Positions 3,628-49,235 of a DNA stretch of 64,000 nucleotides are shown here, piece after piece (position 1 is the first letter of the stretch; every line of letters begins with the position of its first letter). The position numbers were made by a program, and so were the translations under genes. The notes beneath the pieces are model-generated. The model was not told the origin of the DNA and searched no databases. It saw only the letters and a list, made by a program, of their open reading frames with translations. The DNA comes from Akkermansia sp. (GTDB lineage: Bacteria > Verrucomicrobiota > Verrucomicrobiia > Verrucomicrobiales > Akkermansiaceae): positions 16,685 to 80,684 of the forward strand of contig JAKSOV010000001.1 of assembly GCA_024405415.1 (NCBI GenBank), read 5' to 3'.

Positions 3628-5784
3628 ATGAGCGCTGCGTTCCACCTCCTTTCCGATTCCGTGCAGGTTTCTCTCCGCGTCACGGAGCAGGGGAAACTCA
3701 TGCTGAGCTACTTCGGGGCGCGGCTTGCGGAGGCGGATGAGGCCTTTGTGGCACCTGCCTGCGAGTGGCCTCTCGCGTCCACGGATTTCGACTCCCGCGG
3801 GCTGTGGGGCAATTACAGCGGGGAGTTCGCCTACCACCTCATCCTACCTGACGGCACGCTGGGCTGGGACCCGCATGTGGTGAGCGCCGAACAGGCAGGG
3901 GCAGGGGCGCTTTCTGCGGTGTTGGCCGACCCGCGCTATCCCGAGCTGGTGCTCTCCCTGCGCCTGACATTGAGCGCGGAGGGCGTGCTGACGCTTTCCC
4001 CCACGCTGCACAACGGCTCGGCGGGTGAGGTGACGATTCTGCGCGCGCTGTCTGCGGCGTTCCCGCTGCGGGCGGAGCAGGGGTATTATCTCACGAGCTT
4101 TCGCGGCGGCTGGGCGGGCGAAAATCTTTTTATGGAGGAAGCGCCTATCGCCCGCGGCTGCACCGTGTCCTGCGGCAGCACCACGGGCGTGAAATGCGCG
4201 CAGGAGGGCACGCCCGGCTTTGTGCTGGGGCTGGGGAACGCCGCGCAGGAGGAGGCGGGGAATGTGCTGCTCGGCGCGCTCGCGTGGAGCGGCAATTACA
4301 CGCTGAGTTTTAAACACAGCACCTACGGGCAGCTTTTCTGCGGTATGGGGCATGACTTTTCTCATGCGCCGCACCGCTTGGGGGCAGGGGAATCGCTCGT
4401 GCTGCCCGATGCCCTGCTGGTGTTCTCTGACTGCGGCAAGGGAGAGGCCTCACGCCGTCTGCACCGCCACTTGCGGGAGCGCGTCATCCCGCGCGGGCGG
4501 GAGACGCGCCGCATCCTGCTCAACAGCTGGGAGGGCGTGCATTTCGATGTGGATGAAGCGACGCTGCATGCCATGATGGAGCAGAGCGCGGACTTGGGCG
4601 TGGAGCTGTTTGTGCTCGATGACGGCTGGTTCGGCAAGCGCAAGGACGACACGTCTTCCCTCGGCGACTGGACCCCCGATGCCGACAAGCTGCCGCACGG
4701 GCTCGCCGCGCTCACGGAGCATGCGCAGCGCGTGGGAATCGACTTCGGCCTGTGGATGGAGCCTGAGATGATTTGCCCCGTCAGCGAGCTGTACGCCGCC
4801 CACCCCGAGCTGGCGCAAACCCTGCCCGGCATCACCCCGCGCGTGGAACGCCACCAGCTTGTGCTCGACCTCGCCAACCCCGCCGCCGACCCCGCGGGTC
4901 GCGTGAGCGCCGTGCTCGATACCGCTCCCGGCATTTCTTATGTGAAGTGGGATTGCAACCGCAAGATGAGCGACACGGGGTCCGCTTACCTCCCCGCCGA
5001 CCGCCAAGGCAATCTGTTTTTCGACTCCGTGCGCCGCTACTACGATGGCCTTGCCCGCCTGCGAAAGGAACACCCCGCTGTCACGCTGCAATGCTGCTCC
5101 GCGGGCGGCGGGCGGCTCGACCTCGGTGCCGCTGCTTACCACGAGGAATTCTGGCTCTCCGACAACACGGACGCGCACGACCGACTCCGCATGCAATGGG
5201 CGGCGACCCACTTCTTCCCCGCGAACGCCCTCGGCTGCCACGTCACCGCCAGCCCGAACCTCTACACGGGCCGCGAAACCTCCCTCAAATTCCGCTTCGA
5301 TGTCGCCCTCATGGGGCGCCTCGGGCTGGAGCTCGACCCCCGCACCCTCACGCCCACCGACCGCGCCGCCCTCCGCGAGCGCATTGCGCTGGCCAAGCGT
5401 CTCCGCCCCATCGTCCAACTCGGCGAGCTCTACCGCCTCGTCTCCCCCTTCACCTCGCCCGACTGCGCCGTCCTCTACCGTCACGGCAAGAGTGCCCTCG
5501 TCCTCGCCTACACCACCGACCGCGCCTACACCGACCAACAGACTACGATTCCCCTCCGCGGCCTGAATCCGCACGCCCGCTACCGCATCGAAGAACTCGC
5601 CCCCGATGAGACAGGTCGGCACTGCCTTCTCTCATCTGCCTCCTCCTTGTCACGCCGTAGCCTTGGCGAAGACGGATGCCCCGACACTCCCCTCTCCGGC
5701 TCCTACCTCCTCACCCGCGGTCTCCCCCTCCGCTGGACCCGCCCCCTCCAATCCTGCGTCCTGCTGCTCACGGAAGAAGCGTGA
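3628..5784 (+). CDS. Alpha-galactosidase, glycoside hydrolase family 36
   Basis: 718 aa with GH36 hallmarks LNSWEGVHFDVDE, FVLDDGWFGKRKDDTSSLGDW and YVKWDCNR. The C-terminal region carries the 31 nt dispersed motif (LSRRSLGEDG). Confidence 0.85.
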   Translation: MSAAFHLLSDSVQVSLRVTEQGKLMLSYFGARLAEADEAFVAPACEWPLASTDFDSRGLWGNYSGEFAYHLILPDGTLGWDPHVVSAEQAGAGALSAVLADPRYPELVLSLRLTLSAEGVLTLSPTLHNGSAGEVTILRALSAAFPLRAEQGYYLTSFRGGWAGENLFMEEAPIARGCTVSCGSTTGVKCAQEGTPGFVLGLGNAAQEEAGNVLLGALAWSGNYTLSFKHSTYGQLFCGMGHDFSHAPHRLGAGESLVLPDALLVFSDCGKGEASRRLHRHLRERVIPRGRETRRILLNSWEGVHFDVDEATLHAMMEQSADLGVELFVLDDGWFGKRKDDTSSLGDWTPDADKLPHGLAALTEHAQRVGIDFGLWMEPEMICPVSELYAAHPELAQTLPGITPRVERHQLVLDLANPAADPAGRVSAVLDTAPGISYVKWDCNRKMSDTGSAYLPADRQGNLFFDSVRRYYDGLARLRKEHPAVTLQCCSAGGGRLDLGAAAYHEEFWLSDNTDAHDRLRMQWAATHFFPANALGCHVTASPNLYTGRETSLKFRFDVALMGRLGLELDPRTLTPTDRAALRERIALAKRLRPIVQLGELYRLVSPFTSPDCAVLYRHGKSALVLAYTTDRAYTDQQTTIPLRGLNPHARYRIEELAPDETGRHCLLSSASSLSRRSLGEDGCPDTPLSGSYLLTRGLPLRWTRPLQSCVLLLTEEA

Positions 5785-5882
5785 CGCTTCACCCATGAGG
5801 ACCGTCCCTCATTCCGTACACTCTTTCCGAGCAAAAATAGCGGTGTATATACACCGTGATGTAATGAATGCCGGGGTGAGGT

Positions 5883-6272
5883 GTGCGTGATTTTCACCTC
5901 GCCGAAGAAGCCGCCGCTTTCATTGCCGACAATCTCGACATTCCCTTCACCACGGATGAGATGAACCGCTACATCCGCACCCACCACACGGAACATCCCG
6001 ACTTTGCCCAAACCATCCCCTCCTCCTTCGCTCGCCTCGTCGCCTACGACCGCGCACAAGCCGCCGAGTCCTCCCCCTTGTCACGCCGTAGCCTTGGCGA
6101 AGGCGGAGCCGCCGCTTACTACATCGCCGTCTTCCAACACTTCGGCTACGCTCTCATTTCCGCCGACGGCACCCGCTCCCTCTCCGAAATCGCCGCCTAC
6201 TCCGACTACATCAACGCGCTCCGCTCCTATCAAGGAAGTGCAACAGAAAATGCCCCCTCTGCTGAATCGTAG
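5883..6272 (+). CDS. Hypothetical protein (GTG start)
   Basis: 129 aa ORF with host-like GC-rich codon usage and no recognisable domain. It contains a second copy of the 31 nt motif (LSRRSLGEGG). Confidence 0.4.
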   Translation: MRDFHLAEEAAAFIADNLDIPFTTDEMNRYIRTHHTEHPDFAQTIPSSFARLVAYDRAQAAESSPLSRRSLGEGGAAAYYIAVFQHFGYALISADGTRSLSEIAAYSDYINALRSYQGSATENAPSAES

Positions 6273-6616
6273 GACACTAAACGCTACACAGACTGACAGC
6301 GTAAAAGGAACAAGCTCTTTTCGATTTTGTTTGCGCATTCCAACACATATGCGCGTCTCCTGAGAGCGCGCTCTTCTGCTTTTGTCGCCACACGCACTCC
6401 CTTAAACATGATGCCGGAACTGATTGGTCTCGTAACTTTAGCTCTTTTAGCAGTAGAGGGGTCTTTTATTTGCGAGCTAAATGCATCACTAGCGTTGAGA
6501 TTATAATTATTGATGTTTGTTTGTGATGCAATCTAATAATTATTATTTTTCTTGACTAGAAGAAATGGAGTTTTAAATTATTATGGATAAGTCTTTATGT
6601 CAGAAAGCTATTCAAT

Positions 6617-9229
6617 ATGGAGAAGAAAATAAATGTAAATTCTATTGCGAAATGGGTAATTGTTCCCCTTTTATTCATGCTGTTTTTTGTTTTTCTTCCT
6701 CTTGCAACTGATCGATTGGGAGAACTCATAATCGTATGGAAAAACTGCCTTTCATGCTTTACACCAAAAAGTGTCGATATCTTGACCATTATCATATCAG
6801 TCGTTATTTTGGAGATTGCTGTCTTATGTGTACATAGGCGATGGCTGTACTGTTTTTCAGTTATTCCAGTGATATGTGTGTGTGCTTTTTGGATTCTGTA
6901 TTACTCAGAAGATAAGCACTGGTTGCTATTTAGGAATTTTGCCGTTTATATTTTCATGGGGATGGGGGTAATCGTTTCTCTTCCCTTTTTTCATGAACGC
7001 GCGAGAAAACAAAAGGAAACTGATGAAAAAGTTGATGTGGGATATGGAAGAGTTGGAATATACAACGCTGGTATAGAACGCATTATTCGCTTGATTCTTA
7101 GAGCCAATGTTGGAAGGAGTATTGCTGTTTTTGGTACATGGGGAAGCGGTAAAACTCATTTTCTGAATTACCTAAAGTATCGATTAAGGGAACTCAACAA
7201 ACATAATGATGGTACTTGTCCGAAAATATCAGTAAAGCACATTAATCTGTGGCAATGCAACGATTTAGAAGATGCATGGAAGAGTATTGTCGACGGATTG
7301 CATGAGGCAATAAGAGGAAAAGCTCAGAGCCCATTCAGAATAGTAGCGCAAAGATTGCTACAGGTATTAAGTCGTTCAGAGATTTCAATTTTAGGCGTTA
7401 CTGGTGCATTAGATACTTTGGTTAATAAAAGAAATAACGCAGGCGTGGAGATTGCGGCTAATACATTAACTGAGAAGATGAATTATCCAACTAACGCAGC
7501 TGTCCTGATTATAGATGATGTTGAACGCGCAGATATCGACATAGTAAATGCCCTTCTTCCATTGTTGGAGAGATTACAAAAAATAAGTGGCTTGGTAGTG
7601 GTTTGTGCAATCGCCAGAGATGAATTGGAAATGCGCTATGAAAATGCAGGACTTTCATCGCAATTGCTACAGGGGTATATGGATAAATTATTTGAGCAGT
7701 CGATATGTTTGCCAACAATACCTAAGCTCCATGCTTCAATCGAGTTTAAAAGGGCAATCGAGAAAAATTATCCACAATGTAAGTTTTTATTGCAATTTTC
7801 GCAGAGGTATATCGTCCCTTTTGATACGCCTCGTCAGATGATGCGCGTTGTGGAACGATTGTCGTCTATAGAACTAGATTATATGACCGATTCGCTCATG
7901 AAAAATGAGACTATTTCATGCGTTTTCTACATGGAGATATTGCGATTACTTTATCTGGGGTTTCTTCAAGATAGTAGGTTCCTTAAACAATTAAAAGCTT
8001 TGCGGGATGTTATTAATGAAATAAAAAAATCAGATTTGTCAAATAATGATGATGAGTCGGTACATCCCGAGGAGCATGATAATAGACTATCCTCAATTAA
8101 TGTTTTTGATGAACTAATAGCTGAATACGCACCTGGTAGCCGATTATTGCCATCTATATGTAATTCTTTGGCGTATTTGGTTAATAGTAATTGCTATGAT
8201 GAATTGCTGAAGGCATATCACATGAGTTATACTAAAAAAGTTTCTTTGAGTGATGTGGAATTATCGCATGTCGTAAGCGAAGTCGCAAATGCACATTATT
8301 ATTCTCAAATTAGTACTTACTTGCATTCATATTGTACTTTTGAAACTAATGTAAACAATTTTTCGGAGGCAACAGCTTCGTTTTTGAAGATTGTACTCTC
8401 TCGCGCTTATGAGAGCACAAATTTCGCAAGATTGCTATATAATGTTGTCAAAATTGAAATGACGTTTAATGGTTCATGTCGTCACCTTATCAATAGAAAA
8501 GAATTTCTTCTTGATTTGATTATTACTAATATCAAGAGTGAAAGAGGTTCGGGGGTTCTAGAAAAATATTTTTTGCATGCGTTGGTATTGCTGTCTCGTA
8601 CTATGCCTTTACATGAATTATATAAATCCGTTGATCAACTATTGCTGTTTGAACTAAATGCTAGTGCATTTTTGACTGGTTTTTGGTATAGTTCCCACCA
8701 TGACGATTTAAAGAGGTTAAAAAAATCAAAGGCTACAGAATCCCTATATTCCCTATTTGCACGTAGAATTATACAAGATTACTCTGGGTATAATTCTATA
8801 CAGTTGTCAGAACTTGGAGATGTTAACATTATTCGCTTTTTTGAGAAGCATTCGTCGCAATTTTCTCCGGATGTGTATGAGAATGCCTATAAAAAGGCGC
8901 ATCAGGGGAATTTGGTGACGTTGTTTGAAAATTATTTTTGTGTAGTTTTAAATGATAATCAGACGCTTTATCCCAATACTATACGGATAGCAAATCTTAT
9001 GTTTATAAGTCAAGGGGCAAAAGAATTTTGGGCGAAATTAAATATTTCTCAGAAAAATAGGACAATAGATATTATTGCGAGACTTAGAGGAATAATCAAC
9101 CAGAGTACTAACTCTCAATTTAGGCAGCTTCTTTCTATTATTGAATTGGTTGGACAGTATGTAAAAGTAGCTAAAATTCGCAGAAATCCTAAAAATATAG
9201 GTGTCGCCGTATCGAATATTAAACGGTAA
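6617..9229 (+). CDS. KAP-family P-loop NTPase with four N-terminal transmembrane helices
   Basis: 870 aa, AT-rich. Four hydrophobic helices in the first ~120 aa. Walker A AVFGTWGSGKTHFLNYL and Walker B VLIIDDVERAD, followed by a long helical C-terminal region. Confidence 0.8.
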   Translation: MEKKINVNSIAKWVIVPLLFMLFFVFLPLATDRLGELIIVWKNCLSCFTPKSVDILTIIISVVILEIAVLCVHRRWLYCFSVIPVICVCAFWILYYSEDKHWLLFRNFAVYIFMGMGVIVSLPFFHERARKQKETDEKVDVGYGRVGIYNAGIERIIRLILRANVGRSIAVFGTWGSGKTHFLNYLKYRLRELNKHNDGTCPKISVKHINLWQCNDLEDAWKSIVDGLHEAIRGKAQSPFRIVAQRLLQVLSRSEISILGVTGALDTLVNKRNNAGVEIAANTLTEKMNYPTNAAVLIIDDVERADIDIVNALLPLLERLQKISGLVVVCAIARDELEMRYENAGLSSQLLQGYMDKLFEQSICLPTIPKLHASIEFKRAIEKNYPQCKFLLQFSQRYIVPFDTPRQMMRVVERLSSIELDYMTDSLMKNETISCVFYMEILRLLYLGFLQDSRFLKQLKALRDVINEIKKSDLSNNDDESVHPEEHDNRLSSINVFDELIAEYAPGSRLLPSICNSLAYLVNSNCYDELLKAYHMSYTKKVSLSDVELSHVVSEVANAHYYSQISTYLHSYCTFETNVNNFSEATASFLKIVLSRAYESTNFARLLYNVVKIEMTFNGSCRHLINRKEFLLDLIITNIKSERGSGVLEKYFLHALVLLSRTMPLHELYKSVDQLLLFELNASAFLTGFWYSSHHDDLKRLKKSKATESLYSLFARRIIQDYSGYNSIQLSELGDVNIIRFFEKHSSQFSPDVYENAYKKAHQGNLVTLFENYFCVVLNDNQTLYPNTIRIANLMFISQGAKEFWAKLNISQKNRTIDIIARLRGIINQSTNSQFRQLLSIIELVGQYVKVAKIRRNPKNIGVAVSNIKR

Positions 9230-9456
9230 TATAATGTGTATGACTATCATCTGTACATTATAGTTTGCATTTCTAACAAATGCGAGCTTTCATGACTGCG
9301 TATGTTTCCTGCTATGTTGCACTTGTTGCGAGTACTAATGAATCTGTGCTGTGGTTCAGGAACTCCCTGCCGTTTGCGCTTTAGCTAAGGCTGGTACTAA
9401 AGTGGGGCATCTCCACCATGAGTGTAGGTGTGACACGGCGGGTGTGTGCTTGTTCA

Positions 9457-10038
9457 TCAGCCCTCGGCGTAGGAATAGCGGATTTGCAGGGGAAGATTGA
9501 ACACGATGCGTCCATCCTCCAGCAGATGAAGTTTGTCGCAGTCGTAGCGAGAAGTAGACGGGTGTTCGAAATAAGTGTGATGGTACAAATAGTCGCGCAG
9601 TTGGGTGCGTTGGTAGGGCTGAAAGGTGTGTTCTCTGATGCGGAAATGTGGAGGAATGGTGATGTCTCCATCCCATGCTTCGTGCGGAGTCATGCCGAGG
9701 GCTAGGGCTTCAAGAAAACGCTGGATTTTGAGTCGGTAGCGCGTGCCGATGCGGAGCGGGTCGGCAGCGGTCAATTCTTCGCAGAGCTCATCCGTCTTAC
9801 AGGTGCAGCCATGATGACGAACAAGAAGTAGCATCTCCGCGAGGACGGCGGGCATGATTTCATCCACATTGAGCAGATTTTCTTTGAATGGCTGCGGAAC
9901 ATCGACCCAAACAAATTTATCGTTCCTCACTTCGTAGGTGAAGCTTGTCTGCGGGGAAGCAGGGAGAAGAATCGTAGACATAGAAAGGGCAGGGGCTCGG
10001 TGTGGTATACCGGACTCCTGCCCGCCTGTCAACAGCAA
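9457..10038 (-). CDS. Hypothetical protein
   Basis: 193 aa ORF of intermediate GC (a likelier start is MSTILLP at 9981). By eye it weakly resembles the 10423-10791 product (DPLRIG..YRLKIQRFLEALALG vs DPLHLG..YFYKMRCLLRAYFLG). Confidence 0.45.
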   Translation of the reverse strand: MLLTGGQESGIPHRAPALSMSTILLPASPQTSFTYEVRNDKFVWVDVPQPFKENLLNVDEIMPAVLAEMLLLVRHHGCTCKTDELCEELTAADPLRIGTRYRLKIQRFLEALALGMTPHEAWDGDITIPPHFRIREHTFQPYQRTQLRDYLYHHTYFEHPSTSRYDCDKLHLLEDGRIVFNLPLQIRYSYAEG

Positions 10039-10056
10039 TGACTGCCGATGTTGGGT

Positions 10057-10443
10057 TTAGTCATCCAAAAGACCCGCCTCTTGGAAAAGTTGGACTAAGC
10101 GTTTTGCTGTTGCTTTATCGATTTGCAGAGTCTGGCTTGTTTTTCGCATATTGTTGTCTTGCCGCTCATCACTCCCGAACATATTGATTTGGAGTATCGA
10201 GTTTTTTGAAATGATGTATTCGGAGACAACAGGTTTGTGCACTGACTTAATGCAGTCTGATGATTTAGTGAAATTGTCTAAGCGGATTCGTGCCATGTGT
10301 GTAGGGGTAACGCTCATTCTATACCCGGAGATAAAGGGAAAGTCAAGTCTCACTTTGGATTCTTGCCGATTCCTGGAAAAAATCTTCTTGATGAGGCTAA
10401 CAGCATCCGGTACGCTGTCGCTATGGAAGCCTATACCATCCAT
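10057..10443 (-). CDS. Small hypothetical protein, C-terminal HTH-like segment
   Basis: Maximal ORF is 128 aa. TTGACT-17-TATAGA on the minus strand (10318-10346) suggests the real start is MARIRLDNF at 10296 (79 aa). The C-terminus QIDKATAKRLVQLFQEAGLL looks like a winged-helix recognition segment. Confidence 0.35.
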   Translation of the reverse strand: MDGIGFHSDSVPDAVSLIKKIFSRNRQESKVRLDFPFISGYRMSVTPTHMARIRLDNFTKSSDCIKSVHKPVVSEYIISKNSILQINMFGSDERQDNNMRKTSQTLQIDKATAKRLVQLFQEAGLLDD

Positions 10444-10791
10444 TTGAAAGAACCGCTGATTATCCCTAAAAATCTGGATGAAAACTTCCTTTTCATGGTT
10501 GACTCATCTCTGGTGCAACTCTGGCCGCAGATAGTACGCCTGTGCGAGATAGAGAAGCTGTCGCTACAATCAGCAACGGAGCGAATGGTAACTCTCGACC
10601 CGCTGCATCTAGGCATGCCCGAATGGTACTTTTACAAAATGCGATGCCTTCTGCGGGCGTATTTTCTGGGTGATGAGGTGATGACTCTTCCTGTAGAAGT
10701 TGTTCGTCAGGAGGGAAACTGCAGCAGGTTCACATTTGAGGAGTCGAGACAACTAGGAACAATGCTGCTCCATGTGGTACAGCTTGCTTGA
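10423..10791 (+). CDS. Hypothetical protein, weak paralog of the 9457-10038 product
   Basis: ORF 10297-10791. The internal start MEAYTIHLKEP at 10423 avoids overlap with the divergent gene. No recognisable domain. Confidence 0.4.
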   Translation: MEAYTIHLKEPLIIPKNLDENFLFMVDSSLVQLWPQIVRLCEIEKLSLQSATERMVTLDPLHLGMPEWYFYKMRCLLRAYFLGDEVMTLPVEVVRQEGNCSRFTFEESRQLGTMLLHVVQLA

Positions 10792-10825
10792 ATTCGGGGA
10801 TCCGGGGTATAGCGTTTTTCGTTTC

Positions 10826-12157
10826 TTAAATGGAACGGATAAATAGACTATATTGAATCCACTGTTTAAGAAATTTTGCAGTGCTGGATATATGCGACAT
10901 CAGGAACCAGTCATCCTCATTCTTAAAAAATGAATCCTCCTTATTAGTGCCTTGAGCAAGATAATAATCAATGACTTGTTGAAGCTCTATGTATTTCATA
11001 CTTGGTGAAGTGAAAATTCTTAAATCGCATGTCTTTAACCCAAGCCGCTCAAATAGCTCGTGCGTACTTATTGATTTTTCTGCTAGCTGAAACGCTGTAT
11101 CTGTATCGAAGGAAATTAGATATGAAATAATGACGATGATATATAAAGATGCGTTTGAAATGTTTTCTAAGGAGTCTATGTTATTTAGCTTTAGAAGATG
11201 GGTTATAGTCCTTACCCAACTTTCTATTTCTCTAAGCTGTAATTTTTTCTTTTTAATAATCGCGAGAATGAGGTCTGGCAACCCCATAGGCTCTGTAAAG
11301 TTATAGTTGTTATGTAGCAAGTAGAAAAAATATTGGCAGTTGTAATCTCTCGTATTCCTATGTTCAAGTGCAATTTCGGGTAATTGAAGAGTCGTCTTTA
11401 TAAATTTATTAAGATATGTTTCAGCATTATTTTCTCTTAAACCATGAGTGCTGCAGATTGAATCAATTAGGGAGTGCTTGTTCATAATCAAAATGAACTT
11501 GCAATCTTTGCTCGTAAATAGGTGCTTAATTGTTTCAAGCATTTGTAAAGCAAATCCTGGGCGACACCTATCTAATTCGTCTATGATTACTATTAGTTCT
11601 TTATCTCTTCTGGCAAGGTCTAGCAATTCTTTTGCTGTGTCAATTCGAAGCCTATCCGTTCCTGCTGCCTGTAAGAAATCCTTGAATTGCTGTAATGTGG
11701 GATTTTCTGCTTTCTCCTGCGCTTTGCTAGTTGCTTCAGAAATCCCTTTTAAATCAAGTCCTGATCCGATGTGGATGATTTGGTTTGCCAATTCTTTCGT
11801 TGCGGCTATAGCCATCGCACTGCACAGCTTAAATCCAGCTTTCGTGAATTGCTCATGCTCTTTAGCGTCCGTTTCCGAATAAAGATTTGCTACAAAAAGG
11901 GGAAGAGGGTCTGCGGCGTAGTCAAAGATAGACGCATTCCAGTAAATGCATTTGTGCGTTTTTTCGTGATTCTCATTGAGGTATTTCATCATGCGCATGG
12001 CATGGGTGCTTTTTCCTGCCCCCCACGGACCTTGCAAGACAACGGGAGATATTGCCTCAGCAGGAGCGGAACAAATAAGTTCGCACATTGATTGCGCGAT
12101 TGCTTCACGTTTAAAAATATCTTCGGGTAGTTCGATGACTTGTGTCTCGTTTGGCAT
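10826..12157 (-). CDS. KAP-family P-loop NTPase (soluble)
   Basis: AT-rich. Walker A VLQGPWGAGKSTHAMRM and the KAP signature IVIIDELDRCRPGFALQMLETIKHLF. The ORF extends to 12223, but that stretch is the groEL terminator hairpin, so MPNETQV at 12157 is preferred. Confidence 0.8.
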   Translation of the reverse strand: MPNETQVIELPEDIFKREAIAQSMCELICSAPAEAISPVVLQGPWGAGKSTHAMRMMKYLNENHEKTHKCIYWNASIFDYAADPLPLFVANLYSETDAKEHEQFTKAGFKLCSAMAIAATKELANQIIHIGSGLDLKGISEATSKAQEKAENPTLQQFKDFLQAAGTDRLRIDTAKELLDLARRDKELIVIIDELDRCRPGFALQMLETIKHLFTSKDCKFILIMNKHSLIDSICSTHGLRENNAETYLNKFIKTTLQLPEIALEHRNTRDYNCQYFFYLLHNNYNFTEPMGLPDLILAIIKKKKLQLREIESWVRTITHLLKLNNIDSLENISNASLYIIVIISYLISFDTDTAFQLAEKSISTHELFERLGLKTCDLRIFTSPSMKYIELQQVIDYYLAQGTNKEDSFFKNEDDWFLMSHISSTAKFLKQWIQYSLFIRSI

Positions 12158-12184
12158 GGTGGTAGGAGGGAGGTGAATAGTAAG

Positions 12185-12228
12185 TTTAAAATCAATGCGG
12201 GGTGTCCATCGGGTGATGGACACCCCGC
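12185..12228 (-). terminator. groEL rho-independent terminator
   Basis: On the minus strand: GCGGGGTGTCCATC-ACCC-GATGGACACCCCGC, followed by ATTGATTTTAAA. Confidence 0.65.
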
Positions 12229-12280: not shown

Positions 12281-14037
<1,757 letters not shown>

Positions 14038-14322
14038 TTAGTCAATGACGGCGAGAATATCGCTCTCGTTCAGGATGACATAGGTCGTGCCGCCGTAAGT
14101 GACTTCCGTGCCGCCGTATTTGGTGATGAGCACCTTGTCGTTGACGGCGACATTGAAGTTGATGGGGTTGCCGTCCTTGTCGTGACCGCCCGTGCCGAGC
14201 GCACGAACAACAGCCTCCTGCGGCTTCTCCTTAGCGGTATCCGGCAGGAAAAGACCGCCGGCGGTTTTCGTTTCAGCTTCCACGCGCTCCACGAGCACAC
14301 GCTGTCCAATCGGTTTAATCAT
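14038..14322 (-). CDS. groES: Co-chaperonin GroES
   Basis: 94 aa. MIKPIGQRVLVERVEAETKTAGGLFLPDTAKEKPQEA... Confidence 0.97.
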   Translation of the reverse strand: MIKPIGQRVLVERVEAETKTAGGLFLPDTAKEKPQEAVVRALGTGGHDKDGNPINFNVAVNDKVLITKYGGTEVTYGGTTYVILNESDILAVID

Positions 14323-14385
14323 AATAGTGTGTTGTTTGGTTTAGTTGTTGAGTTGTATAAAGAAGATAAAAGAAAAATGTGTTGT

Positions 14386-15066
14386 TTAATTTGTGCCGTT
14401 TTTAATAATTTTCATTGTGTTGTCAATGTATTTTCGTGGCTCTCCAGAAACAGAATTTCGCAGTAGAGATAATGAATTTTGAATTTCCTTTTGGGGAATG
14501 CAATCAAAGCGATGCCAAAGTAACTCGTAATGATGAATTCTGCTTCCTTCTATGTACGCTTCAGTATCTTGGAAATAAATGGGAAGATCTTTTGCGTCTT
14601 CTTCTGCCGAATGGTGAACTACAACACCATAATACTTCGTGCTTTCCTGAAGTTGAAATGCGTCAATGAGTGCTTGTCCGAAAAACAACTGCTTTGTAGT
14701 ATCACAAGTTATCTTGCCTTTAGCAATGGCTCCCTTCATTGGTATTTTTTCACCAATAGCATAGCGCATAATGTCCAGCGTAACGTTGGATAAAGAGATT
14801 AGGCTTTTGCGTGAGTCATTTTTGCTGAAAATAACTATGCTGTCAGAAAAAAGACTAATTTGTAGTCCTTCTTCTTTGTGTGATTCCATGGATTCTGAAA
14901 TCTTTTTTTGCAAACCTTGGAGAGTGTTCAATACTTGAGCATGCGTGCTTCTGGCTACTCTATCTTTAAATCCTAGTATATCTAAAAATGCGACAAAACG
15001 GGAACATGTAATAGGTGCGCGCCCTTTTACAATAATAGGAGAGGATGTCCCAGATGTTTCTTGCAT
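14386..15066 (-). CDS. Palm-domain nucleotidyl-cyclase-like protein (class III cyclase / GGDEF / minimal Cas10-polymerase-like; tentative)
   Basis: AT-rich. Three motifs are spaced as in cyclase palm domains: AFLDILGFKDRV, ISLFSDSIVIFS and MKGAIAKGKI. The start MQETSG at 15066 lies 1 nt after the stop of the upstream GIY-YIG gene. The longer ORF to 15186 would overlap that gene by 118 nt. Confidence 0.45.
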   Translation of the reverse strand: MQETSGTSSPIIVKGRAPITCSRFVAFLDILGFKDRVARSTHAQVLNTLQGLQKKISESMESHKEEGLQISLFSDSIVIFSKNDSRKSLISLSNVTLDIMRYAIGEKIPMKGAIAKGKITCDTTKQLFFGQALIDAFQLQESTKYYGVVVHHSAEEDAKDLPIYFQDTEAYIEGSRIHHYELLWHRFDCIPQKEIQNSLSLLRNSVSGEPRKYIDNTMKIIKNGTN

Positions 15067-15067
15067 A

Positions 15068-15367
15068 TTATTCAACGGTGTTTTGTGTAATGACGTAGCA
15101 ATAAACAATTTTTGCAGAGTCATCGCCACCTCCTGGTGCTCCTCGCATACCGCGTTTTTGATAAATCTTTTCAATCTCTCTAGCAACAGTAGATGATTGA
15201 GCTGTGCGATAAATCCACCACATGCCTTCGCGTTTTACGTTGTGCTCATGGAACAATCTTCTGTTGATGTCGGCAGTTACGCCAACATAAAATTCGGAAT
15301 AATATGTTTTTCCGCTCTTATTTATGTGCTCGTCGAAATCTTGTATGATTTCTTCTTTCGTTTTCAT
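15068..15367 (-). CDS. Small GIY-YIG (URI) nuclease-domain protein
   Basis: 99 aa, AT-rich. KTYYSEFYVGVTADINRRLFHEHN followed by AREIEKIYQKRG fits the GIY-YIG core pattern. Confidence 0.55.
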   Translation of the reverse strand: MKTKEEIIQDFDEHINKSGKTYYSEFYVGVTADINRRLFHEHNVKREGMWWIYRTAQSSTVAREIEKIYQKRGMRGAPGGGDDSAKIVYCYVITQNTVE

Positions 15368-15455
15368 GGCGAAATGTTATTTGTTTTAAGTTCGGCGCGG
15401 CCGGAGGCCGCGCGTTACTTAAATGATTTGTACATTGTACTTCGTACTTTGTACA

Positions 15456-15457
<2 letters not shown>
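15368..15457. repeat. GC hairpin plus 4 x heptamer block abutting the dnaK stop
   Basis: AAGTTCGGCGCGGCCGGAGGCCGCGCGTTACTTAAATGA, then TTTGTAC-ATTGTAC-TTCGTAC-TTTGTAC. A near-identical heptamer block occurs at 58462-58494. Confidence 0.75.
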
Positions 15458-17378
<1,921 letters not shown>

Positions 17379-17436
17379 CTATTGGTTTGTTGTTAATAAG
17401 TGGGGCGACTCACACGGAGCCGTACACTTCCCTTGT

Positions 17437-17452
17437 TGCAAACGCTGTGCCA
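17437..17452 (-). promoter_or_regulatory. Sigma-54 (RpoN) -24/-12 promoter upstream of dnaK
   Basis: The minus strand reads TGGCAC-AGCGT-TTGCA, an exact fit to TGGCAC-N5-TTGCW. It lies ~70 nt upstream of the dnaK ATG in the correct orientation. Confidence 0.6.
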
Positions 17453-17480
17453 AAAGTACAACGGTGACACTGTTGCACTG

Positions 17481-17493
17481 CAAATCGTTGATT
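17481..17493 (-). promoter_or_regulatory. IHF consensus site between the upstream palindromes and the -24 element
   Basis: The minus strand reads AATCAACGATTTG, which matches WATCAANNNNTTR. It is centred ~35 nt upstream of the -24 box. Confidence 0.4.
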
Positions 17494-17561
17494 ATCAAGA
17501 GAAATAGGAAAGTGTGGCCCATAAAGGCTTTCAAACTCGCCACAGGGCGGATATGTAGGCG

Positions 17562-17620
17562 TGCGGCAAAATGCCGCATTCGGACAAAATGCCGCAGGCT
17601 GAGTGCGGCAAAATGCCGCA
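17562..17620. promoter_or_regulatory. Candidate enhancer (UAS) array: TGCGGCA-AAA-TGCCGCA palindromes
   Basis: Two perfect 17 bp palindromes (17562-17578 and 17604-17620, centres 42 bp apart) flank one degenerate copy (17579-17596). The array lies ~110-170 nt upstream of the -24 element. Confidence 0.5.
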
Positions 17621-17623
17621 GGT

Positions 17624-17700
17624 GCAGGCAAGTAGGATTTTAATCCTACTTGCCTGCGCGCGCGTGCCAAAAGGATGAATTAAAAATTCATCCTTTTGGC
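17624..17700. other. Two adjacent perfect long hairpins
   Basis: 17624-17657: 15 bp perfect stem GCAGGCAAGTAGGAT, loop TTTA. 17666-17700: 16 bp perfect stem GCCAAAAGGATGAATT, loop AAA. No U-tract on either strand. Confidence 0.85.
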
Positions 17701-18042
17701 GGGGGAAAATCAAATATTCTGCTTGTCTCGCTTTGCCTGTTTGTATACACTTTGTTCGCTTTTCCGCCGACTTGCCGCAAGGAGGGTGCTTCGTCACTCA
17801 TCAGCGGAGAGCACCGACCTAATCTGCTGAGGTGACGTTGCCACATAGGATAACGGAACAACACATGCAAGGTCGGTGGAGACTGATAATATGTCATTGA
17901 AGACAATAGTAGAGTTCTGCATTCTGCTCCTGGAGATACTGCTGTTTTTCCTTGGGGTGAAGTAAGGCTCCGCGCGGTCGGGCTGCAACTCGGCCGCGCG
18001 TTATCTCTTAAACAAAATCGTACGGACTTCCTTTTCGGGGGA

Positions 18043-18070
18043 TTGACAAAAGGCGGGAATGTGGTATGAT
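18043..18070 (+). promoter_or_regulatory. Near-consensus sigma-70 promoter with extended -10 and no ORF downstream
   Basis: TTGACA-16 nt-TGgTATGAT. Confidence 0.55.
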
Positions 18071-18076
18071 TCCCTC

Positions 18077-18150
18077 ATCAAGTCATAGATGACCTCTGAA
18101 CAGTCTCCACGGAACCCCTGATGTTGCAGCATCGGGGGTTCTTTCTTTTT
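18077..18150 (+). ncRNA. Candidate small RNA (~74 nt) defined by a promoter-terminator pair
   Basis: The predicted TSS is ~7 nt after the -10 box. There is a short hairpin GTCAT-AG-ATGAC. The terminator is GAACCCCTGATG-TTGCAG-CATCGGGGGTTC (12 bp, one G.U pair) followed by TTTCTTTTT. No ATG lies at the TSS and no plausible ORF follows. Confidence 0.45.
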
Positions 18151-18157
18151 GGGCGGC

Positions 18158-18520
18158 TCACACGCTGCCGCAGTAGCTGCCGTTGGCGGAGTAGATAACG
18201 GCGTGGCCGTTCGGGGAGTGGCAGATGACGAGTCCGCGGACGACTTGGATGCGGGTGCAGCCGCTTGCGTGGAGGGTGCCGCGGTAGGAGCCGCTTGCGT
18301 CATAGAGGGTGATGGTGCCGTTGCTGAGGAGCACGGCAATCGTGCTGCCGTCCGTCTGTGCGTCTACGGCGTTGCCGGAGCCGCTGATGGTGCCGCGGTA
18401 AGAGCCGCCTGCATCATAGGCGCAGACATTGCCGTCCCTGATGGTGAGGGCGGCGACACCTTCCGCGAGGGCGGGCAGCGCCGCGAGGCAGAGCAGAGCG
18501 GGGAGGACAAGGCGCTTCAT
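18158..18520 (-). CDS. Small secreted repeat protein
   Basis: Start MKRLVLPALLCLAALPALAEG (signal peptide). Three YDA(G/S)GSYRGT-type repeats. The longer ORF start at 18586 lies upstream of the predicted promoter. Confidence 0.6.
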   Translation of the reverse strand: MKRLVLPALLCLAALPALAEGVAALTIRDGNVCAYDAGGSYRGTISGSGNAVDAQTDGSTIAVLLSNGTITLYDASGSYRGTLHASGCTRIQVVRGLVICHSPNGHAVIYSANGSYCGSV

Positions 18521-18526
18521 GCCGCT

Positions 18527-18555
18527 AGCGTAGCATGCGGCGGCGGGGATGGCAA
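18527..18555 (-). promoter_or_regulatory. Sigma-70-like promoter, leaderless configuration
   Basis: Minus strand: TTGCCA-17-(TGc)TACGCT-6 nt-ATG(18520). Confidence 0.45.
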
Positions 18556-18610
18556 GTCGAATGCTTTCCCTACCGCAGTCTATCAATCACCTGTAGCACG
18601 TGATTCGCGC

Positions 18611-18639
18611 TTGCATGGGGGCGGGCGGGCGCGTAGAAT
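18611..18639 (+). promoter_or_regulatory. Sigma-70-like promoter, leaderless configuration
   Basis: TTGCAT-17-TAGAAT-7 nt-ATG(18647). Confidence 0.5.
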
Positions 18640-18646
18640 GACGCGT

Positions 18647-20209
18647 ATGAAGATGAACCGTTCCTTGCTCCCCGTGTTGGCTGTGGGGCTGCCCCTGTCG
18701 GCGGCGGATTTCGCAACAGGTATCCGCGCGGTGTTGCCGCCCGCGGAGAAGGCCGAGGCTCCCGCACCCGCTGCGGCTCCTGCGGAAGCGCCCGCGGCTC
18801 CTGCGGATGCGGCGCCGGAAACACCCGCCCCTGAGGCGAGCACGGCCATGGCCAAGCCGGAGCTGAGCTACACGGATGACGCTGGCCCTGCGGCGGATGT
18901 GACGCCCGCGGCGCATGCCGAGGAGTACAAGCGCTTCTGCTCGATGCTCAAGGAACAGGCGGAAAAGAATCTCTACGACTTCTGCCCCGCGATGGAGCTG
19001 GTGCTCAAGGCTACGAACGATCCCTTTGCCGTGGATGCGTGGATGGACAAGGCCGCCAAGGAGGGCTATTCGGCCGCGCAGCAGTTCATGGCGGACAAGC
19101 GCCTGGTGAACGTTCGCATGGATGAGCTGCAGGCGGCGGATGTGAAGGCGGCCTACGCGCTGGCCCGCAAGGCGGCGGATGCGGGCTATGACCCCGCCAA
19201 GGTGAACGTCTACATGTGCCTCAGGAGCGGCGTGGGCGTGGCGAAGGATGAGAAGGGGGCGGAGAAATACATTCTCAATGCCTGCAAAGGCGGGGGCTTT
19301 ATCCCGCGTTTCAAGTGGATGCAGCTCAGCGGTCGCCTGACGACGTTCGATGACCGCGAACGCGCGGAGGTGAAGGCGGAGCTGGAGCGCAAGAACGACC
19401 ACGTGGCCTACTACATCGCCCAGCTGGCCCCCACGGCGGCTGACAAGGTGGATTGGTATCGCAAGGCGGCGGAGCTGGGCAATGCGGAGGCGCTTTACGC
19501 GCTCTCCGTGATGGTGACGGAGCGCGACCCCAAGGCGGGTTTTGAGCTGCTGAAGGAGGCGATTAAGCACCACAGCTCGGACGCCATGCTGGACCTCGCC
19601 ACGGCGCTGACGGAGGGCGATCCGAATGCCCTTGTCATGAAACAGGCGGGCATCGGCCACGATGATGTAACGGGCCGACACCTGGCGAAACTGGCGGGCA
19701 TGCTCGGCAATGCGAAGGCTTGTTTCTGGCTGGGCCACGTGTACCACGACGGTGTGTACGGCCTGAAGAAGGATGACGCGCTCGCCTACCGTTGGTTTGA
19801 AAAGGGCGCGTTGGCGGGTAGTCTCGCCTGCGGCACCTCGCAGGGCGTCATGCTGCTGACGGGGCTGGGCACCGAGCAGCAGGTGAAGCAGGGGCTCGCC
19901 CACCTGAACGCCGCGGCTAATGCCGGTTCGCCTCATGCGGTGGTCGGTCTGGCCTATGCTCTTTATAACGGGCTGGGGACGGACAAGAACGCCCGCAAGG
20001 CGGCGGAGATTTTGCAGGAGGCTGCGGCCATGGGCAACCCCGAGGCCTACATTTATCTCGCTTACATCACGGCGAAGGGCGGGGCTGATTTGCCCGCCGA
20101 TGCCAAGCGTGCGGAGCGTTATGTGCGTCTCGCTGCGCTGGATATGAAGGACGAGGCTAAGCAGATGTACGAGAAGCTGCTGGCCGAGGGCTGGACCTTG
20201 GAACCCTGA
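18647..20209 (+). CDS. Sel1-repeat (TPR-like) protein with signal peptide
   Basis: MKMNRSLLPVLAVGLPLSAADF, an Ala/Pro-rich linker, then multiple Sel1-type repeats (e.g. GNAKACFWLGHVYHDGVYGLKKDDALAYRWFEKGA). The ORF is open from 18149, but that part overlaps the opposite-strand gene and the promoter. Confidence 0.85.
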   Translation: MKMNRSLLPVLAVGLPLSAADFATGIRAVLPPAEKAEAPAPAAAPAEAPAAPADAAPETPAPEASTAMAKPELSYTDDAGPAADVTPAAHAEEYKRFCSMLKEQAEKNLYDFCPAMELVLKATNDPFAVDAWMDKAAKEGYSAAQQFMADKRLVNVRMDELQAADVKAAYALARKAADAGYDPAKVNVYMCLRSGVGVAKDEKGAEKYILNACKGGGFIPRFKWMQLSGRLTTFDDRERAEVKAELERKNDHVAYYIAQLAPTAADKVDWYRKAAELGNAEALYALSVMVTERDPKAGFELLKEAIKHHSSDAMLDLATALTEGDPNALVMKQAGIGHDDVTGRHLAKLAGMLGNAKACFWLGHVYHDGVYGLKKDDALAYRWFEKGALAGSLACGTSQGVMLLTGLGTEQQVKQGLAHLNAAANAGSPHAVVGLAYALYNGLGTDKNARKAAEILQEAAAMGNPEAYIYLAYITAKGGADLPADAKRAERYVRLAALDMKDEAKQMYEKLLAEGWTLEP

Positions 20210-48956: not shown

Positions 48957-49235
48957 TCAGCTCTTTTGCTTCGGCACAAAGCCCGCCGAAGGGCGGAAGG
49001 TGAGCTTGTGGGCGGCGGGGACTTCTCGTATGCGCCCGCTGTTGATATCGTAGGCGCGGCGGGCAGGGCGAGTGTCGTATTCAAAGGTGCCGAAGTGGGC
49101 TATGTAGACCTTCTCCGCCTCCGCGGCAGAAAGGATGGAAGCAAGCACCGCCTCGGCAGCGGCTGAGGCGGTGGCTTGGGTGGTGCCCGCGCCCATCAGC
49201 TGACGGACACGGGCGATGAGTTGCTTTTTATTCAC
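48957..49235 (-). CDS. HU/IHF-family DNA-binding protein
   Basis: 92 aa. MNKKQLIARV..., FGTFEYDTRPARRAYDINSGRIREVPAAHKLTFRPS (HU beta-arm). Confidence 0.9.
   Translation of the reverse strand: MNKKQLIARVRQLMGAGTTQATASAAAEAVLASILSAAEAEKVYIAHFGTFEYDTRPARRAYDINSGRIREVPAAHKLTFRPSAGFVPKQKS

Follow-up and report, generated by a model that had tools for sequence, protein, structure and literature searches.

We analyzed the region upstream of dnaK in a stretch of 64,000 nucleotides of Akkermansia sp. DNA (hereafter the window; 59% G+C). We conclude that dnaK, and probably the whole dnaK-groES-groEL cluster, is very likely transcribed from an enhancer-dependent sigma-54 (RpoN) promoter. An exact -24/-12 element and an array of upstream palindromes at dnaK had been noticed when the sequence was read by itself (below, the sequence-only reading) and had been taken to be such a promoter. 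Comparison with other Verrucomicrobiota now supports that core proposal in four respects: conservation, specificity of the motifs, their helical phasing, and their recurrence at hsp20 operons. The features on which the argument depends are the following (UAS, upstream activating sequence; IHF, integration host factor).

15456 to 17366, minus strand: dnaK (Hsp70; Pfam HSP70), 636 amino acids, with its ATG at 17366.
17437 to 17452, minus strand: sigma-54-type promoter, TGGCAC-AGCGT-TTGCA, an exact match to the consensus; position and spacing are kept in relatives and the five-nucleotide spacer is variable.
17426 (plus or minus 2 nt), minus strand: predicted transcription start, placed according to typical sigma-54 promoter geometry; the leader would be about 60 nt long.
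17453 to 17561, minus strand: spacer between enhancer and promoter, containing the IHF-like sequence AATCAACGATTTG at 17481-17493.
17562 to 17578, minus strand: proximal enhancer site (UAS-3), a perfect 17-bp dyad centered at about -144, a position that recurs in several scored loci.
17580 to 17596, minus strand: middle enhancer site (UAS-2), TGCGGCATTTTGTCCGA, with an intact 5' half and a degenerate 3' half, centered at about -162.
17604 to 17620, minus strand: distal enhancer site (UAS-1), a perfect 17-bp dyad, TGCGGCA-TTT-TGCCGCA, centered at about -186 from the predicted start; this type of dyad recurs in related species.

The element upstream of dnaK has the sequence and spacing expected of a sigma-54 promoter. 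The sequence TGGCACAGCGTTTGCA (17452 to 17437, minus strand) is an exact TGGCAC-N5-TTGCA located 86 to 71 nt 5' of the dnaK ATG. Its GG at -25/-24 (17451/17450) and GC at -13/-12 (17439/17438) are exactly 10 nt apart in the context TGGCAC-N5-TTGCW. The sequence-only reading had placed the element correctly, about 70 nt before the ATG; the -12 element ends 71 nt from it. The predicted start at approximately 17426 was obtained by setting +1 at 24 nt downstream of the -24 G.

The exact element is unique in the window. TGGCAC-N5-TTGCW was found once, against 0.13 occurrences expected from shuffled sequences, which confirms an earlier impression, gained by eye, that there was no second TGGCAC-N5-TTGC. 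Allowing one mismatch gave three -24/-12-like matches against 3.03 expected, which is the level of chance, and the two matches other than that at dnaK are inside genes. Further -24/-12-like matches in the window and in the loci described below were judged to be due to chance because they were intragenic or not accompanied by dyads.

The promoter element is conserved across Verrucomicrobiota. Scores were computed for the 250 nt preceding dnaK at 79 loci, which span Akkermansiaceae, relatives of Luteolibacter, Haloferula and Roseibacillus, Chthoniobacterales, Opitutales, Methylacidiphilales, Limisphaerales, and one Lentisphaerae contig, and for 6979 background windows from the same loci. A GG-N10-GC element with a score of at least 14 out of 15 was present at 61% of the dnaK loci and in 0.3% of the background windows, an enrichment of approximately 200-fold. 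With a threshold of at least 13 out of 15, the values were 87% and 3.7%. All 11 of the closest relatives from other species have TGGCA[CT]-N5-TTGC[AT] at 82-107 nt from the ATG; the columns TTGGCA and TTTGC are invariant among them and the five spacer bases and the flanks vary. The position and spacing of the motif are kept across lineages whose DnaK proteins are 64-93% identical and whose surrounding non-coding sequences cannot be aligned. Because the genes upstream of dnaK vary among lineages, the conserved upstream elements appear to belong to, and travel with, dnaK. Clustering of all open reading frames (ORFs) within 6 kb upstream of dnaK revealed no conserved regulator.

Close relatives show the same pattern on a finer scale. 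A DnaK identical to that of the window is on record in assembly GCA_024500545.1. The nearest relatives are from Akkermansia and Akkermansiaceae genomes with DnaK 81-93% identical, and a later protein search gave contigs at 94-100%. No match in the DnaK protein search was labelled A. muciniphila, the type strain of which was outside the sequence set. In a conspecific contig (L212) with a 99% identical DnaK, the upstream region is about 96% identical, and the substitutions (about 4%) affect the N5 spacer (AGCGT to GGGGT), the sequence separating the dyads, and the leader. There are none in the GG and GC elements or in the three dyads.

In four loci from Opitutales and Methylacidiphilales (L057, L060, L076, and L079), just 27 nt separate the beginning of the -24/-12 element from the dnaK ATG. 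Transcription would then be predicted to start at the start codon or 1-2 nt ahead of it, suggesting that these lineages have a leaderless sigma-54 dnaK mRNA, unless the true start codon is further downstream.

The palindromes form an array of three sites at a distance typical of enhancers. Two perfect 17-bp palindromes, TGCGGCAAAATGCCGCA, are at 17562-17578 and 17604-17620 with their centers 42 bp apart, and are in phase with each other. A middle copy, TCGGACAAAATGCCGCA, at 17580-17596 has one half intact. The array is 110-168 nt further upstream of the promoter element. The sequence-only reading had described the two palindromes, their separation, their distance of 110-170 nt above the -24 box and the degenerate copy between them, all of it accurately. 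Where an UAS array would have at least two inverted-repeat sites approximately 80-200 bp upstream of the -24 element, the window has three (-144, -162, and -186). There were no palindrome sites elsewhere in the window, with 0.58 expected at up to three mismatches.

The dyads are nearly restricted to the region upstream of dnaK in the loci analyzed. We generalized the dyad to TGYGNCA-N3-TGNCRCA and searched the window and 80 loci (976 kb). Of the 67 matches of at least 11/12, 59 were within 400 nt upstream of dnaK, including two of the window sites. At least one dyad (at least 10/12) was found within 260 bp upstream in 56 of the 68 regions with a scored promoter (82%; 67 loci and the window), compared to 2.2% of background windows of 230 nt. 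Conservation of promoter and palindromes in related genomes had been set beforehand as a test of the proposal, and both proved to be conserved.

The dyads are positioned on a preferred face of the helix relative to the promoter. Their centers, reckoned from the -24 G, cluster at -99, -111, -122, -133, -144, -154, -165, and -186. The distances to the promoter have a period of 10.5-11 bp (R of 0.54-0.60; n = 94); the nominal Rayleigh p, about 1e-12 to 1e-15, treats related genomes as independent and is not corrected for phylogeny. Different lineages occupy different multiples of the helical period, indicating that the phasing is not due to shared ancestry alone.

The degenerate middle copy is likewise a kept feature rather than a product of decay, because the same three-part layout recurs in five relatives (L001, L005, L006, L213, and L215). 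In these, a good site is followed by a middle site 24-27 bp on and by another good site 18-19 bp further, and the middle site has a good promoter-distal half and a poor proximal half.

Two additional observations concern sequences further afield. Upstream of dnaK in a Lentisphaeraceae contig (L065, approximately 5660-5790), there are several direct repeats of TGTGACA(CA) upstream of TGGCACGTCTCCTGCT and no dyads, so that outside Verrucomicrobiota the half-site seems to survive, differently arranged. A metagenome scan with the exact palindrome gave at least 120 stretches, almost all of which look like chance matches in soil and water contigs. None of the metagenome matches listed had a dyad with a -24/-12 element before a chaperone gene, and the scan gave no information about a regulon.

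The same combination of dyads and promoter is found upstream of hsp20 operons. When the window and the 80 dnaK loci were searched by signature motifs for other chaperone or protease genes, the only finds were two hsp20 genes on the edge of one contig (L072) and one false match. Starting from the hsp20 gene at that edge, we retrieved tandem hsp20 operons from six distinct contigs, three of which are labelled Verrucomicrobia, Verrucomicrobiota, or Limisphaerales. All six operons have TGGCAY-N5-WWGCT with the exact GG-N10-GC spacing at 51-71 nt from the ATG. All six also have dyad-like sites at -111 to -123 and at -149 to -163, the same preferred distances as at dnaK; for example, one has TGTGTCATGATGGCACA at -117 and TGTGCCATGATTTCACA at -149 (L207), and another has sites at -111 and -154 (L210). 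In these comparisons, the pair of dyad and sigma-54 promoter marks at least two types of heat-shock operon. The sequence-only reading had suggested looking for the palindrome upstream of other sigma-54 promoters; dyads of this type are present at these hsp20 operons, among which Akkermansia is not represented.

We considered whether a real sigma-54 promoter might be only modulated by an ordinary transcription factor or a nucleoid protein bound at the dyads, the true activator binding elsewhere or having no DNA-binding domain, like CtcC of Chlamydia. Activators of that kind do exist in the related phylum Chlamydiota (PMC7482065), and the protein at the dyads is a predicted one. However, the 7-3-7 geometry of the dyads resembles that of NtrC-type sites, the sites number two or three and lie at -100 to -190 in phase with the promoter, and the dyads strictly co-occur with the -24/-12 element at two operon types. 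Taken together, these properties are characteristic of an enhancer at which a DNA-binding activator acts, and we regard a mere modulator as improbable.

Other known routes to heat-shock control are not apparent at dnaK. There was no CIRCE (controlling inverted repeat of chaperone expression; TTAGCACTC-N9-GAGTGCTAA) anywhere in the window at up to three mismatches. The best match to a sigma-32 promoter (CTTGAAA-N13-15-CCCCATNT) scored 11/14 with an 11-nt spacer, which is too short, and about 5% of background windows scored as well. The sequence-only reading had likewise seen neither. We found no sigma-70-like promoter between the dyads and the dnaK ATG. The sole sigma-70-like match on the dnaK strand, TTGGCA-16-TAGGAT (9/12) at 17670-17643, is within and between the following structures.

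17624 to 17699, minus strand: a pair of long, perfect hairpins (17624-17657 and 17667-17699) immediately preceding the enhancer, the array starting right after them.

These hairpins are probably terminators or insulators that shut off transcription from upstream, and they bear on whether the palindromes could be operators of a heat-shock repressor, like HrcA at CIRCE or HspR at its associated inverted repeat (HAIR), acting on a sigma-70 promoter just upstream with the -24/-12 match incidental. The weak sigma-70-like match would put the dyads at about +16 to +74 of its transcript. That match lies among terminator-like hairpins, however, and in relatives the dyad array begins 10-25 nt after the terminator hairpin of the upstream gene, leaving no room for a promoter. 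Furthermore, the -24/-12 element is itself kept across the phylum, and the dyads are helically phased to it and not to any upstream feature. We therefore consider repression of this kind very improbable.

That the motifs are chance matches or non-functional relics, with dnaK expressed from an unrecognized housekeeping promoter, is scarcely credible: one-mismatch -24/-12-like strings do occur at chance frequency in the window and the rules for housekeeping promoters of Verrucomicrobiota are poorly known, but the motifs are strongly enriched over background and keep their position and spacing across such divergent lineages.

Some points weigh against an enhancer-dependent sigma-54 promoter as we have described it. 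The dyad in the middle (-162) misses the preferred phase by about 3 bp. The phasing statistic counts related genomes as independent observations, and the evidence for a regulon that includes hsp20 comes from distant lineages and not from Akkermansia. Finally, a sigma-54 promoter gives no transcription unless an activator is present, whereas the cell needs DnaK and GroEL constantly. If the promoter is used as proposed, then either the activator is always partly active or there is an unrecognized second promoter.

The spacer between enhancer and promoter may favor DNA looping. Over the 90 bp that adjoin the promoter, the A+T content is 58%, compared to 41% for the whole window, and an A+T-rich spacer beside the promoter recurs in relatives, unlike the IHF consensus. 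The sequence-only reading had proposed an IHF site here. The match itself stands: AATCAACGATTTG, on the minus strand from 17493 to 17481 and centered near -61, matches WATCAANNNNTTR. Its conservation does not, as the consensus is in none of the 11 closest other-species relatives and in six of the 68 regions scored (67 relatives and the window, which is one of the six). Three matches to the consensus in the window, against 1.05 expected, are weak evidence by themselves. The site is kept in the conspecific contig L212, like nearly all of the region. Comparison does not support this particular IHF-like site, and an architectural protein may assist looping.

A DNA-binding protein of the HU/IHF family (PF00216; 92 amino acids) is encoded at 48957-49235 on the minus strand of the window. 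It bears on the idea of looping, and may be HU-like or IHF-like.

Candidates for the sigma factor and the activator are known from A. muciniphila. This species encodes RpoN (Amuc_0021, with all three RpoN domains), and an NtrB-like kinase (Amuc_0311) with a sigma-54-specific Fis-family response regulator (Amuc_0312) (PMC12552655, PMC5945754). There are up to six activator genes by a permissive survey count, so Amuc_0312 is only one candidate. An RpoN box was not found in the window or the loci, and no activator gene was linked to dnaK in any lineage examined. The only locus with GAFTGA and Walker motifs (L080) encodes an NtrC-type regulator that is separated from dnaK by unrelated genes.

We propose the following mechanism. 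Sigma-54 RNA polymerase would bind TGGCAC-N5-TTGCA as a closed complex, and dimers of a bacterial enhancer-binding protein, presumably NtrC-like with a Fis-type helix-turn-helix, would bind the dyads near -144, -162, and -186 and oligomerize into an active AAA+ ring. The A+T-rich spacer would allow the DNA to loop, possibly with an HU/IHF-type protein, and ATP hydrolysis would open the promoter. Transcription would start near 17426 and extend through dnaK and probably groES-groEL. The same pair of activator and promoter would control hsp20 operons in other Verrucomicrobiota, constituting a regulon for heat shock or proteotoxic stress in place of control by sigma-32 or HrcA/CIRCE. Candidate signals are temperature, unfolded protein, and titration of chaperones.

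A more far-reaching version of this model seems to us rather unlikely, though worth stating. Verrucomicrobiota might lack any sigma-32 or HrcA circuit, with dnaK-groESL and hsp20 wholly dependent on sigma-54 and on one dedicated, phylum-wide enhancer-binding protein for TGYGNCA-N3-TGNCRCA. This AAA+ activator would also be the sensor of proteotoxic stress; DnaK or GroEL might, for example, keep it inactive. If this were true, then such a dedicated sensing activator would be a principle of heat-shock sensing not yet described, and rpoN would be essential in Akkermansia.

The genes downstream of dnaK probably form an operon with it. At nearly all of the 80 loci from Verrucomicrobiota, the next genes on the dnaK strand are groES and groEL, with a gap of approximately 100-170 nt between dnaK and groES. 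This points to a conserved cluster that is probably an operon, in which the promoter upstream of dnaK would probably drive all three genes. The remaining parts of the cluster in the window are as follows.

12281 to 13930, minus strand: groEL, part of the conserved cluster.
14038 to 14322, minus strand: groES, the downstream member next to dnaK in the conserved dnaK-groES-groEL cluster.
14386 to 15367, minus strand: a strain-specific, A+T-rich cassette of two ORFs (99 and about 226-266 amino acids) between dnaK and groES, absent from L212.

The cassette is inside the presumed operon and is not part of the regulatory element. The gap between dnaK and groES is 1134 nt in the window and 167 nt in L212. 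The region from 14330 to 15420 is about 39% G+C, and its minus-strand ORFs (15367 to 15068 and about 15066 to 14386) are tightly coupled by a TAATATG junction. The sole match of the larger ORF was to phrog_23933, of unknown function, and there were no Pfam or PADLOC matches to the cassette. No terminator-like site was found within it, and it would thus be transcribed with the operon in the source strain. A cassette downstream of groEL in another contig (L213) is not homologous to it.

Two further features of the operon and its flank were observed. Just past the dnaK stop codon (15385-15455, minus strand) there is a G+C-rich hairpin that lacks a T-run; it is present in all close relatives (the dnaK-groES intergenic regions of L001-L011), some of which also have repeated GTACGAAGT-like words. 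This hairpin may be a signal for intercistronic processing, stability, or partial termination that sets the ratio of dnaK to groESL. Directly downstream of groEL there is an island of low G+C content of about 6 kb (6200-12200), which encodes two KAP-family P-loop NTPases and a C-terminal fragment of an HpaII-type restriction enzyme; one of the NTPases is a strong match to the PADLOC candidate system PDC-S20. In the same place, related Akkermansia contigs have a different KAP NTPase (L212, 8288-9911; L214, 8116-9426), in one case with a DNA methylase. The region downstream of groEL looks like a variable hotspot for defense islands.

The predicted leader of the dnaK mRNA begins with a potential RNA structure.

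17406 to 17422, minus strand: short stem-loop close to the predicted 5' end of the dnaK mRNA (CGGCTC-CGTGT-GAGTCG), also present in L001-L011.

Each of the 12 Akkermansia-clade sequences has such a stem-loop beginning within the first 3-15 nt of its predicted leader, and the stems differ in sequence. This is possibly a 5' element that acts at the level of RNA, such as a stabilizer, and it would fit a start just upstream; we take it as supportive and not as proof. For a classical RNA thermometer, its distance from the start codon is too great.

Other features lie beyond the hairpins upstream of the enhancer. On the plus strand between 17700 and 18150, there is a hydrophobic ORF of 24 codons (17892-17966; MSLKTIVEFCILLLEILLFFLGVK), a G+C-rich hairpin (17971-18000), a near-consensus sigma-70-like promoter (18043-18070; 11/12 with TG), and a terminator-like hairpin (18111-18142). 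These could represent a small RNA or the gene for a small toxic peptide. Rfam and tRNA scans of the window found nothing, the Rfam scan including this region. On the minus strand, 18158-18586 encodes a small, apparently secreted protein with repeated 'YDAxGSYRGT' motifs, and a gene caller made the same call in L212 (120 amino acids). This gene overlaps the 5' part of a mechanically called plus-strand ORF (18149-20209), indicating that the plus-strand gene, which encodes Sel1 repeats, probably starts near 18696.

The proposed arrangement at dnaK resembles known enhancer-dependent promoters and differs from them in its target. At glnAp2 of enteric bacteria, NtrC binds 17-bp dyads of 7-3-7 geometry (TGCACCA-N3-TGGTGCA), two strong and others weaker, which share one face of the helix at about -100 to -140; activation is by DNA looping. 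The dnaK array shares the 17-bp 7-3-7 dyads and the multiple upstream sites. It differs in its half-site (TGCGGCA), in its somewhat greater distance upstream (-144 to -186), and in that the target is a chaperone operon and not nitrogen assimilation. Heat-shock genes that depend on sigma-54 are also known: lonD of Myxococcus xanthus, controlled by HsfA and HsfB, of which HsfA is a two-component enhancer-binding protein, and ibpB of E. coli, which has a sigma-54 promoter. Those are single accessory genes in hosts that also use sigma-32, whereas here the predicted target is the core chaperone operon.

Control of chaperone genes by sigma-54 has been found or predicted in three other groups, and the circuit is less unusual than the sequence-only reading had supposed. 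In Flavobacterium psychrophilum, sigma-54 promoters (motif SM4) with mapped transcription start sites are present at groES-groEL, dnaK, grpE-dnaJ, htpG, clpB, and lon (PMC9723704). As proposed for the dnaK locus described here, genes for protein quality control are under sigma-54 instead of sigma-32 or HrcA, and no activator is named there. F. psychrophilum differs in belonging to Bacteroidota, in having dnaK and groESL as separate units, and in that no enhancer motif was reported; the evidence for Verrucomicrobiota, in turn, is comparative only.

Predictions extend this control to a neighboring phylum. A 2025 survey with position-specific scoring matrices found the genes for DnaK, DnaJ, GrpE, GroES, GroEL, and IbpA to be enriched for predicted sigma-54 promoters in Planctomycetota and Bacteroidota (PMC12316311). 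The chaperone set is the same, and Planctomycetota are in the same superphylum (Planctomycetota-Verrucomicrobiota-Chlamydiota, PVC). That survey included A. muciniphila and other Verrucomicrobiota, but did not name the phylum for chaperones and gave no enhancer sites.

In Chlamydia trachomatis, another PVC relative, hrcA-grpE(-dnaK) is reported to have tandem sigma-66 and sigma-54 promoters, and this dnaK-containing operon responds to the sigma-54 activator CtcC (PMC7482065, PMC8762339). In Chlamydia, HrcA/CIRCE and a sigma-66 promoter remain in place at that site, and because CtcC has no DNA-binding domain, there is no enhancer. In contrast, the Akkermansia locus has no CIRCE and has a conserved enhancer array.

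In the searchable literature we found no description of the enhancer dyad, its phasing, its conservation across the phylum, or shared control of the dnaK-groESL cluster and hsp20, and neither a map of start sites in Akkermansia nor a named heat-shock activator in Bacteroidota. Recognition of sigma-54 in heat-shock control is recent in Bacteroidota, Planctomycetota, and Chlamydia, and the activator or signal is named in none of that literature. The sharply defined enhancer described here, a 17-bp dyad in two or three phased copies, could be used as bait for the activator and as a search key for its regulon. It also raises a physiological question, in that an essential and abundant chaperone operon would depend on a class of promoter that is silent without an activator. 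Based on these comparisons, we suggest that a circuit already known elsewhere extends to Verrucomicrobiota, adding another PVC phylum and, with it, the medically studied Akkermansia.

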